From: an uncultured delta proteobacterium
GTDB taxonomy: Bacteria; Desulfobacterota; Binatia; UTPRO1
Reading direction: 5' to 3'
Length of the DNA stretch: 64,000 nucleotides
Assembly: GCA_963753325.1 (NCBI GenBank)
Contig: CAVWBS010000003.1
Span: 1,128,220-1,192,219, forward strand
Under the pieces are notes generated by a model that saw only the letters and a program-made list of their open reading frames with translations, did not search any database and was not told the DNA's origin. Positions 55,205 through 57,208 of this stretch are shown here, piece after piece. A program made the translations under genes and the position numbers. Position 1 is the first letter of the stretch. Each line of letters begins with the position of its first letter.

Positions 55205-57208
55205 TCACAGGCGGAGGCCGTGTCCGTTCTCGAGCTCGTCGTCGTCGCCCGGCGCGAGGCCGTACTTCGAGAGCCGATGGCGCAGCGACCGGTACTTGAT
55301 GCCGAGGAGCTCGGCCGCCCGCTTGCGGACGCCGCCGGCGCGGTCGAGCGCGGCGAGCAGCATGTCCTTCTCGTAGAGCGCGAGCTGATCGTCGAGATTG
55401 CGACCCTCGACGAACAGCGGGGTCGTGGCGGGTTCGGCGCTCGGCGCCGCCTTCTCCGCCGGCTCCGCGCGGGTGGTGAGGTAGGCGGGGAGGTCCTGCT
55501 CGGTGAGGAGGTCGCCCTCGCAGAGCGTGACCGCGTGGTCGACGATGTTCTCGAGCTCGCGGACGTTGCCGGGATAGGCATACGTCGCGAGGATGCGCAT
55601 GGTGCGCGGGGAGACCTTGGCAACCGCCTTGCCGTGACGCGTGGAGCACGTCTGCAGGAGGTGCATCAGCAGGATCGGGATGTCCTCGGGGCGCGCCCGC
55701 AGCGCCGGCGTCTCGACGCGGATCACGTTCAATCGATAGTAGAGGTCCTCGCGGAACTTGCCGGCGGCGACGAGGCGCTCGAGGTCGCGATTGGTCGCGG
55801 CGACGACGCGCACGTCCACGGCGATGGCGGCGCTGCCCCCGACGGGTACGATCTGCAGATCCTGCAGCACCCGCAGCAGCCGAACCTGCATGGCCGGGGG
55901 CAGCTCACCGATCTCGTCGAGGAAGATGGTGCCGCCGTTCGCCTGACGGAAGAGGCCCGGCCGGTCGCTGATGGCGCCGGTGAAGGCGCCGCGGACGTGA
56001 CCGAACAGCTCGCTCTCGATCAAGGTCTCGGGAATGGCGCCGCAGTTGACGGCGACGAACTCGCGCTTCGTGCGCGGGCTGCGGCTGTGGACGGCACGCG
56101 CGACCAGCTCCTTGCCCGTCCCGCTCTCGCCGGTGATGAGGATGGTCGAGTCGGTCGGCGCCGTCTTCTCGATCAGGGCGAACATCCTCCGCATGGCCTC
56201 GCTCTCGCCGACGAGCCCCTCGAAGGACGTGATCTTGCCGTCGCCGAGCGGCTGGACGCTGCTCGCGTACGCCTCGAGCTGCTCCTGCTCGCGCAGGCGG
56301 CACTCCATCTCGCGTACGGTGGTGACGTCCTGCACGACGTACACCCGCGCCACCGGGCATTGGTACGTGTCCGTGACCGGGGCCGCCTTGATGCGCAGCA
56401 CCCGGCGCGCGTCGCCGTCGCCCAGGTCGACCTCCGTCGGCGCGCCGTCGGCGGTCGACGCGGACGCCCCGGGCAGCAGGGCCTCGAGCGCGACGCCGAC
56501 GGCGGCGGTGCCGTCGAGCGCGAGGATCTCGGCCGCGCTCGGGTTCAGGGATGCGATCCGTCCGACCTCGTCCGTGACGATCAGGCCGTGGTCCACGGTG
56601 TTCGCGACCTGGCGCTGCAGCCCCTCGATGCGTCCCAGCTCCTGCTGCTTCTGCTCGAGCAGCCGCTCCGCGGCCGCGAGCTGGGTGGTGAGGTAGCGCG
56701 CGAGGCTGGCGATGGCGAAGAAGGACGCCACGTTGGTGGCGTGCGTCAGGAGATGCCGCATCGGATCGGCGGCCTCCGGCACGAGGGCCCGCACGATCGC
56801 GATCACCGCGACGTAGCAGAGCGCCGCGGCCGCCGCCGTGATCGTGATGCCGCGCCCCAGCCGCAGCAGCGCCGCGTTGAGGATGACGAGGTTGTAGAGC
56901 ACGGGCAACGGGCTCTCGAGCGCGCCGGTGAGGATGATCATCAAGCTGACGAGTCCGAGATCGACGATGATCTGCGCCGCCGCGTAGAGGAAGATGCGCC
57001 GCACCTTCGGCAGCAGCAGTCCCGAGATGCCGGTGATGCCGTAGCCGAGGGCGATCAGGCCGAGCCGGAGGTCGGGCCCCGTGTCGCCGCGCGGGCGGGA
57101 ATACAGCAGCACGGCGCCGCAGAGGAACGCCGAGACCAGCAGCAGGCGGACGAGCAGGAACCAGCCGAGCCGGTCGCGCAGGCCCGCGCCCCGGACCGCC
57201 GCCGTCAT
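55205..57208 (-). CDS. Membrane-bound sigma-54-dependent activator: a PilS-like 6-TM domain, a PAS domain, an AAA+ (GAFTGA) domain and a Fis-type HTH in one polypeptide. No histidine kinase core and no receiver domain.
   Basis: Intact 667-aa ORF. Residues 1-190 or so carry six hydrophobic helices. A coiled linker follows, then a PAS-like region (GLIVTDEVGRIASLNPSAAEIL). The AAA+ core has GESGTGKELVARAVH, ELFGHVRGAFTGA, GGTIFLDEIGEL and RVVAATNRDL. The C-terminal HTH is AAELLGIKYRSLRHRLSKYGL. The gene sits in the pilS-pilR slot between pilC and pilA. Confidence 0.8.
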   Translation of the reverse strand: MTAAVRGAGLRDRLGWFLLVRLLLVSAFLCGAVLLYSRPRGDTGPDLRLGLIALGYGITGISGLLLPKVRRIFLYAAAQIIVDLGLVSLMIILTGALESPLPVLYNLVILNAALLRLGRGITITAAAAALCYVAVIAIVRALVPEAADPMRHLLTHATNVASFFAIASLARYLTTQLAAAERLLEQKQQELGRIEGLQRQVANTVDHGLIVTDEVGRIASLNPSAAEILALDGTAAVGVALEALLPGASASTADGAPTEVDLGDGDARRVLRIKAAPVTDTYQCPVARVYVVQDVTTVREMECRLREQEQLEAYASSVQPLGDGKITSFEGLVGESEAMRRMFALIEKTAPTDSTILITGESGTGKELVARAVHSRSPRTKREFVAVNCGAIPETLIESELFGHVRGAFTGAISDRPGLFRQANGGTIFLDEIGELPPAMQVRLLRVLQDLQIVPVGGSAAIAVDVRVVAATNRDLERLVAAGKFREDLYYRLNVIRVETPALRARPEDIPILLMHLLQTCSTRHGKAVAKVSPRTMRILATYAYPGNVRELENIVDHAVTLCEGDLLTEQDLPAYLTTRAEPAEKAAPSAEPATTPLFVEGRNLDDQLALYEKDMLLAALDRAGGVRKRAAELLGIKYRSLRHRLSKYGLAPGDDDELENGHGLRL

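Follow-up and report, generated by a model that had tools for sequence, protein, structure and literature searches.

Can a single membrane protein do the work of the sensor kinase PilS and the activator PilR in the control of the pilin gene pilA? The question is raised by a type IV pilus gene cluster in a 64,000-nucleotide stretch (here called the window) of contig CAVWBS010000003.1, assembled from an uncultured delta proteobacterium of the Binatia (UTPRO1). An earlier note on this DNA had claimed that the pilS and pilR slots are filled by one intact open reading frame (ORF) of 667 aa, and the ORF list bears this out: on the minus strand, between pilC and two copies of pilA, lies a single ORF (55205..57208 including the stop codon), which has an ATG start and opens 2 nt past the pilC stop codon. 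From its translation, Pfam matches, an AlphaFold2 model and its homologues, we consider it probable that the encoded regulator is a one-component, inner-membrane-anchored sigma-54 enhancer-binding protein, which arose by deletion-fusion of pilS and pilR and activates pilA in response to pilin without phosphorylation. Since one protein with a PilS sensor and a PilR motor replaces the pair of kinase and activator, control of pilA probably does without a phosphorylation step.

The N-terminal part of the regulator is a PilS-type transmembrane (TM) domain of six helices (codons 11-183, 56660..57178; all parts of the gene are on the minus strand), for which the Pfam family 6TM_PilS (PF25323) matched residues 11-183 with 51.9 bits against a cut-off of 27. 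A Kyte-Doolittle scan likewise gave six hydrophobic segments, with a charge bias that fits an N-in/C-in topology, and six TM helices are also present in the AlphaFold2 model (mean pLDDT 86.7), which was built from an alignment of 117 family sequences. In this model TM6 extends as a long signalling helix (153-204); residues 208-294 then adopt a PAS fold, residues 296-318 form a linker helix, and the AAA+ core and a helix-turn-helix (HTH) at the C-terminus complete the chain. The PAS domain was placed at codons 207-299 (56312..56590) by a match to PAS_4 at residues 207-299, the strands of the model between 208 and 294 and colinearity with the PAS domain of PilS. The linker helix and variable junction, which hold the fusion point (codons 296-327, 56228..56323), were delimited by the alignment of fusions with PilS and the model helix 296-318. 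The sigma-54 activator AAA+ core and lid follow at codons 332-587 (55448..56215), with matches to Sigma54_activat (PF00158, residues 332-498, 241.7 bits) and AAA_lid_14 (PF25601, residues 504-587), and the gene ends with a Fis-type HTH_8 DNA-binding domain (PF02954, codons 609-649, 55262..55384, 45.4 bits). The AAA+ core contains the Walker A motif GESGTGKE at 360-367 (K366), the GAFTGA loop at 407-412, the Walker B residues D431/E432 and the conserved arginine-finger/sensor II residues R467, R486, R492 and R550, and in a Foldseek search the modelled core resembled ZraR, NtrC1, FleQ and FlrC with root-mean-square deviations of 1.2-2 A. The order of domains given in the earlier note, from a six-TM PilS-like N-terminus through a linker and PAS-like domain to the activator core and HTH, was thereby recovered in full.

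The same note had seen no trace of a phosphorelay in the protein, and this also held. There were no Pfam matches to HisKA, HATPase_c or Response_reg in the 667-aa regulator even at E<=1, and only the first turns of the DHp helix of PilS remain. The 160 residues from TM6 to the AAA+ core are wholly occupied by helix, PAS domain and linker in the AlphaFold2 model, which excludes a cryptic receiver or DHp/CA kinase core. When the sensor half was compared with the sequences in the PDB, no relatives of the TM domain came up, the sole match being a weak one between the PAS domain and DhaR. An NCBIfam scan returned only sub-threshold equivalogs of bacterial enhancer-binding proteins (bEBPs; PrdR, NifA, RtcR and others); with no PilR equivalog among the models to score, it does not decide membership in PilR either way. 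By every sequence criterion the regulator is a bEBP, and neither a histidine kinase nor a response regulator; six membrane-spanning segments and an HTH_8 domain share one ORF, with the membrane location being predicted.

The origin of this protein can be traced by comparison with genomes in which pilS and pilR are separate. In metagenome-assembled genomes (MAGs) of Bdellovibrionota and Thermodesulfobacteriota the two genes occupy the same slot after pilC, and encode a PilS of 520-600 aa (6TM, PAS, HisKA, HATPase_c) and a PilR of 450-500 aa (receiver, AAA+, HTH). The pair was found directly after pilC in 15/15 split loci, and the fusion directly after pilC in all 14 distinct fusion loci of a scan which took one genome per species. 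We compared the regulator using BLASTP with the products of one such split locus (L025, pilC-pilS-pilR-pilA). Residues 10-311 were colinear with residues 31-311 of its PilS (25% identity, E 3e-14), the alignment ending four residues short of the HisKA match at 315-375, and residues 328-658 aligned with residues 140-468 of its PilR (52% identity, E 9e-110), the receiver of which spans residues 6-115. An alignment of 16 fusions with 12 PilS sequences was colinear through the six helices, the signalling helix, the PAS domain and the first DHp turns. Past these turns the PilS proteins continue into the H-box AHEIRNPL, whereas the fusions pass through a short variable stretch to the start of the AAA+ domain (F-EG-L-V-G-x-S). 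The H-box has no counterpart among the fusions in this alignment and the AlphaFold2 model has no DHp/CA fold; the linker helix shares homology with the opening turns of the DHp helix in PilS, with the H-box histidine lost. Judged from these alignments, the simplest history would be an in-frame deletion that began shortly ahead of the pilS H-box and ended shortly past the pilR receiver. In Thermodesulfobacteriota MAG locus L043 (7608-10665) the canonical pair is reversed, with pilR before pilS.

We also searched the sensor half against 1.84 billion representative sequences, which gave 1723 proteins at E<=1e-3, of which 439 reached E<=1e-10. Among the best 150 sensor-module relatives, 119 were 6TM-PAS-histidine kinases and 11 were AAA+ fusions, these classes being assigned with a home-made hidden Markov model and phmmer. 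The residues R21, Q79, D83, G95 and S99 are at least 90% conserved in 128 PilS-type and fusion sequences, the majority being PilS-type kinases. In a neighbour-joining tree of the sensor part the main fusion family was monophyletic with 99% bootstrap, and in a neighbour-joining tree of the AAA+ domain, which was drawn without bootstrap support, the AAA+ domain of the regulator stood among the PilR-type clades. Two proteins of the same architecture, L017 (7614-9803, from a Bdellovibrionota MAG) and L021 (4298-6331, from an unclassified MAG), fell outside the main clade in both trees, a placement which hints at a second independent fusion, with the deep branches being weak. The same architecture was seen in two divergent fusions left out of the trees, namely L086 (2458-4515, from a 'Deltaproteobacteria' MAG), with 27-29% sensor identity, and L085 (403-2385), which is located upstream of pilMNOPQ rather than pilA.

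A survey of related genomes for the same architecture, as called for in the earlier note, showed that the regulator belongs to a conserved family. The database search recovered an identical protein and more than 115 full-length cluster representatives, i.e. at least 117 full-length homologues, of 651-732 aa and with 40-88% identity over 96-100% coverage; this number excludes an assembly deletion as the source of the fusion. The homologues come from independent assemblies (NCBI, JGI, ENA, Logan), among them contigs 0.57, 1.7 and 5.5 Mb long, and almost entirely from Binatia-type MAGs, with the named members assigned to Candidatus Binatia, "Deltaproteobacteria bacterium" or UTPRO1. The listed homologues carry the same Pfam set as the regulator, and an aligned member without a precomputed PF25323 match (P0049) nevertheless aligns across the TM region. 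All fusion loci examined are within type IV pilus gene clusters, and most adjoin pilA. The relative at 68% identity (L001) has the gene order of the window, with PPDK, aroE, pilB, pilT, pilC, the regulator, pilA, a gene for a 522-aa protein, pilD, minor pilins, two receivers, tmk and holB, and the loci at 47% identity (L003 and L004) have pilC, the regulator, pilA and YfhO; two further, divergent members are found in pilT-pilC-X-pilA and X-pilMNOPQ contexts.

Conservation was expressed as the mean pairwise identity across the 117 family members, and was highest in the HTH (0.73), followed by the AAA+ domain (0.64), the TM domain (0.43), the signalling helix (0.42) and the PAS domain (0.38), with the junction linker being the lowest region (0.28). 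Walker A K366, GAFTGA, D431/E432 and the arginines R467, R486, R492 and R550 are invariant or nearly so among the 117 members, as are, without exception, R21 (TM1), D83 (TM3), P100 and Y132 of the TM domain, and the PAS residues G216, N222, G238, E259 and R272 are at least 90% conserved.

The predicted targets of the regulator lie immediately downstream of its gene. Both pilA copies encode prepilins of 130 aa: pilA-1 (54546..54938, minus strand) carries the N_methyl motif, and pilA-2 (53696..54088, minus strand) has the same mature part and a different leader. The earlier note had placed exactly spaced sigma-54 promoters at both copies, and we indeed found exact TGGCAC-N5-TTGC -24/-12 boxes 62 nt upstream of the ATG of pilA-1 (TGGCACCCCCCTTGC, 55000..55014, minus strand) and 70 nt upstream of that of pilA-2 (TGGCACCGCCCTTGC, 54158..54172, minus strand); boxes equivalent to the pilA-1 promoter are present in related loci. 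Further upstream on the same strand are the candidate upstream activator sequences ATTTGTCAC (55177..55185), 171 bp upstream of the -24 box of pilA-1, and AAATGTCAC (54356..54364), 192 bp upstream of that of pilA-2. Their consensus AWWTGTCAC occurs twice in the window, counting both strands, and both occurrences are upstream of the pilA copies; 0.10 would be expected, and none of 100 shuffles gave two. An A/T-rich TGTCAC/TGTAAC motif is also found just past the stop codon of the regulator in 10 related loci (L001, L003, L006, L007, L008, L011, L013, L014, L015 and L017), often as AAATTTTGTCAC and at times palindromic, with a GG-N10-GC box downstream in each of the 10. The PilR sites of Pseudomonas have a TGTC core. 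GTCT elements are described as hallmarks of PilR sites in PMC6058289. Judged by motif and position, the AWWTGTCAC elements (the AAATTTGTCAC sites) are likely to be the upstream activator sequences of pilA.

The two pilA copies share a direct repeat of 416 bp which is 100% identical (53656-54071 and 54506-54921, spaced 850 bp apart) and spans the coding part of the mature pilin and the beginning of the terminator; the copies differ in leader peptide (MTGSTKQSG and MRGSSRQSG), promoter and upstream element. Only one pilA is present in the relative L001. The repeat could be a recent duplication, the product of gene conversion or an assembly effect.

A sigma-54-like box also precedes pilT (TGGCATGTGGCTTGC, 59589..59603, minus strand, about 28-30 nt from the gene). 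It is conserved as CGGCATGTCGCTTGCT in L001 (7592-7607) and L005 (458-473) and follows the pattern [T/C]GGCATGT[G/C]GCTTGCT, which is kept in the close clade of the window, and in the window GTGACGG/TTGACGG half-sites lie directly upstream of it. This suggests that pilT, pilC and the regulator gene may themselves be sigma-54 dependent, which would give positive autoregulation. A third exact TGGCAC-N5-TTGC box (33072-33086, minus strand) was set aside: it lies inside a 166-aa ORF (32797-33297, minus strand) resembling a universal stress protein, and is probably a chance match because no AWWTGTCAC element is nearby.

Put together, these features point to the following mechanism. The HTH of the regulator would bind the AWWTGTCAC elements, and the protein would form its ATPase oligomer at the membrane and remodel sigma-54 RNA polymerase at the pilA promoters, with its activity set by the PilS-type membrane domain, which in Pseudomonas binds the N-terminus of pilin, and relayed through signalling helix, PAS domain and linker. 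A full pool of pilin in the inner membrane would hold sensor, PAS domain and linker in a state which blocks AAA+ assembly, and depletion of pilin would release this block and turn pilA on, so that pilin homeostasis would be reached without phosphotransfer. Because the regulator gene adjoins pilA and pilin is inserted co-translationally, the promoter DNA should stay near the membrane. According to PMC6528607, which cites Kilmury and Burrows (2016), R24 of Pseudomonas PilS and E5 and P22 of PilA are important for the interaction of PilS with PilA and for autoregulation. R21 in TM1 of the regulator probably corresponds to this R24. The mature PilA N-terminus reads FTLIELL..., and as the pilins of the window begin with FTLIELLVVVAIIGILAAIAIPQF, they have both E5 and P22. 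By analogy it is plausible that pilin acts directly on the tethered activator.

Several points weigh against this proposal. The equivalence of R21 and R24 is deduced from where R21 lies in TM1 and from alignment to other PilS-type kinases rather than to Pseudomonas PilS itself, and the sign of regulation, with pilin as repressor, is carried over from Pseudomonas. All members of the family are from uncultured organisms, and since the N-terminus of the pilin does not vary among them, co-variation is uninformative on an interaction between sensor and pilin. The PAS_4 match of 22.8 bits is slightly below its cut-off of 23.1. A search for the RpoN box found no rpoN within the window, and the presence of sigma-54 is therefore deduced from the promoters and the intact GAFTGA loop. 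Furthermore, bEBPs act as hexamers and PilS-type sensors as dimers, and the proposal offers no explanation of how a ring that brings 36 TM helices together would form at the membrane while bound to DNA. The wider reading, that there is a conserved family of sigma-54 activators which, as integral membrane proteins, gauge the inner-membrane pilin pool directly, switch pilA without phosphorylation, arose by deletion-fusion of pilS and pilR possibly more than once, and may drive their own pilT-pilC-regulator operon in the clade of the window, is advanced here tentatively, with slightly more doubt than belief.

Four other explanations were weighed against a pilin-responsive membrane activator. The protein could be a functional sigma-54 activator of pilA with a membrane domain that does not sense pilin, serving instead as an anchor or localiser or responding to another membrane or envelope cue, with the signal, if there is one, entering via the PAS domain. 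According to Ethier and Boyd (2000), as cited in PMC6058289, polar localisation is directed by the TM domain of PilS, attempts to identify a signal for Neisseria Nps failed (PMC6528607), and the PAS domain is conserved, with five residues at 90% or more. Mere anchoring is hard to square with the invariant polar residues R21, D83, Q79 and Y132 within the membrane, the same TM signature is retained in the PilS kinases, and the pilin has E5 and P22, so that we regard this explanation as rather unlikely, if deserving to be taken seriously. Alternatively, the regulator might still need phosphorylation or a partner, in that a separate kinase or the stand-alone receiver of the cluster modulates it. 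A receiver gene is indeed present at 46290-46703, and L001 keeps two such genes; what makes this improbable is that receiver, phospho-acceptor Asp pocket and H-box are all missing from the regulator, that there are no histidine-kinase cores within the window, and that we know of no bEBP regulated in trans by a single-domain receiver.

The fused ORF might also be a decaying remnant of pilS and pilR which no longer regulates pilin, for which there is a precedent in Rsp of Neisseria gonorrhoeae. In Rsp (Carrick, Fyfe and Davies 2000, as cited by PMC6528607 and PMC10269533) the PilS-like Nps is fused to the PilR-like Npa; it is regarded as a remnant, is reported to play no part in the transcription of pilE, and belongs to the pathogenic Neisseria, the rpoN of which is inactive. 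By published description, the membrane part of PilS forms the N-terminus and the output part of PilR the C-terminus of a single polypeptide in Rsp, as in the regulator, but Rsp adjoins parC and not a pilin gene, and, as far as Rsp is known here from description, it differs from the present family, which is conserved, located in pil clusters and accompanied by intact sigma-54 promoters. At least 117 intact homologues with 40-88% identity, in which the ATPase motifs and the TM signature are invariant, a monophyletic and old family (99% bootstrap), and the retention of consensus sigma-54 promoters and a conserved upstream element at pilA are difficult to reconcile with decay, and gonococci, for their part, are without active RpoN; we judge a remnant to be very improbable. 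Least credible is an assembly or frameshift artefact merging separate pilS and pilR, which can be practically dismissed, as the same architecture and length (651-732 aa) recur across the independent assemblies of all four sources and the fusion loci examined all have pil-cluster context. The existence of Rsp does bear on the earlier note, which was not aware of a described one-component regulator of this kind: a PilS-PilR fusion was reported in 2000, and the claim of novelty has to be qualified to that extent, whereas a conserved, apparently functional family was not found described. A full-text literature search, the coverage of which leaves out most subscription journals, turned up no account of a fusion family that is conserved, linked to pil clusters and equipped with intact sigma-54 promoters.

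How the regulator is placed among known systems follows from these comparisons. With the PilS-PilR systems of Pseudomonas aeruginosa, Dichelobacter, Kingella, Geobacter and Myxococcus, and Nps-Npa of commensal Neisseria, it shares the 6TM and PAS domains colinear with PilS, including the TM1 Arg and TM3 Asp/Gln signature, an AAA+/HTH part that is 52% identical to a PilR encoded beside a 6TM PilS, the position of its gene between pilC and pilA, and a predicted pilA promoter of the sigma-54 type with an upstream element with a TGTC core. It differs from them in lacking H-box, DHp, CA and receiver, which leaves no phosphotransfer and no kinase/phosphatase switch, and because sensor and activator are one polypeptide, unlike in PilS-PilR, the activator is tethered to the membrane. 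Non-receiver N-terminal sensors are found in other bEBPs, i.e. GAF in NifA and NorR, V4R in DmpR/XylR and PAS/GAF in DhaR and PrdR, and the N-terminal domains of NtrC1/DctD, NorR and DmpR exert negative control, in NtrC1/DctD through a coiled-coil linker. As in bEBPs of the NifA/NorR/DmpR/DhaR type, the sensory domain of the regulator is directly upstream of the AAA+ domain with a helical linker between them, and by analogy its sensor is likely to repress oligomerisation until signalled, as in NtrC1/DctD, NorR or DmpR; those proteins of the NifA/NorR/DmpR/DhaR type are soluble, whereas the input here is an integral-membrane domain of six helices. With ToxR, CadC, TcpP and other transmembrane one-component regulators (surveyed in PMC10269533) the regulator has in common that sensor and DNA-binding domain share a membrane-bound polypeptide. 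Those proteins are bitopic, with an N-terminal winged-helix or similar domain, and act at sigma-70 promoters, whereas the regulator is polytopic (6 TM), has a C-terminal HTH and presumably remodels the sigma-54 holoenzyme using ATP.

The remainder of the pil cluster is also on the minus strand. Upstream of the regulator are pilB (59685-61376, Pfam T2SSE/MshEN), pilT (58451-59557, T2SSE) and pilC (57211-58431, T2SSF), an order also seen in related loci, and these genes (57211..61376) are probably co-transcribed with the regulator. Downstream of pilA-2 is a gene for a 526-aa polytopic membrane protein without a Pfam match (52029-53609), followed by pilD (about 51280-52050) and the minor pilins. 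The 526-aa protein, a candidate pilin-modifying (glycosylating) enzyme, is conserved between pilA and pilD in L001 (13068-14636, 522 aa), and its position is taken by a YfhO-family membrane protein in distant relatives (L003, 12778-15237; L086, 5319-7682). On the opposite strand, an ORF of 789 aa (49261-51630, plus strand) splits the cluster between pilD and a GspH-like minor pilin; it lacks Pfam matches and is rich in hydrophobic segments over the first ~470 residues, and in this high-GC sequence may or may not be a real gene. The gene for the stand-alone CheY-like receiver (46290-46703, Response_reg, 106.9 bits) closes the minor-pilin cluster and precedes tmk and holB, with no kinase nearby, and the two receiver genes of L001 are at 17995-18838. 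Within the window there was no second bEBP, no histidine-kinase core and no second 6TM sensor.

What is new here is a conserved and apparently functional family of PilS-PilR fusions, of which one vestigial precedent, Rsp, was already known. The family currently goes under the labels "response regulator PilR" or generic sigma-54 regulator, and many members are named PilR in IMG; the label "response regulator PilR" is wrong, because these proteins have no receiver. The finding bears on the regulation of type IV pili, the evolution of signal transduction and the mechanism of bEBPs. If the proposed function is true, the pilin signal would leave the PilS sensor as a conformational change without kinase/phosphatase chemistry, the family would offer a minimal single-protein system in which to study pilin sensing by PilS-type domains, and an enhancer-binding protein would be obliged to build its ATPase ring while embedded in the membrane. 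PMC10269533 uses Rsp to illustrate how transmembrane regulators may evolve from two-component systems, and the natural rewiring seen in this family, in which a PilS membrane sensor is joined straight to an AAA+ transcription motor, supports the proposal that transmembrane one-component regulators can evolve in this way.

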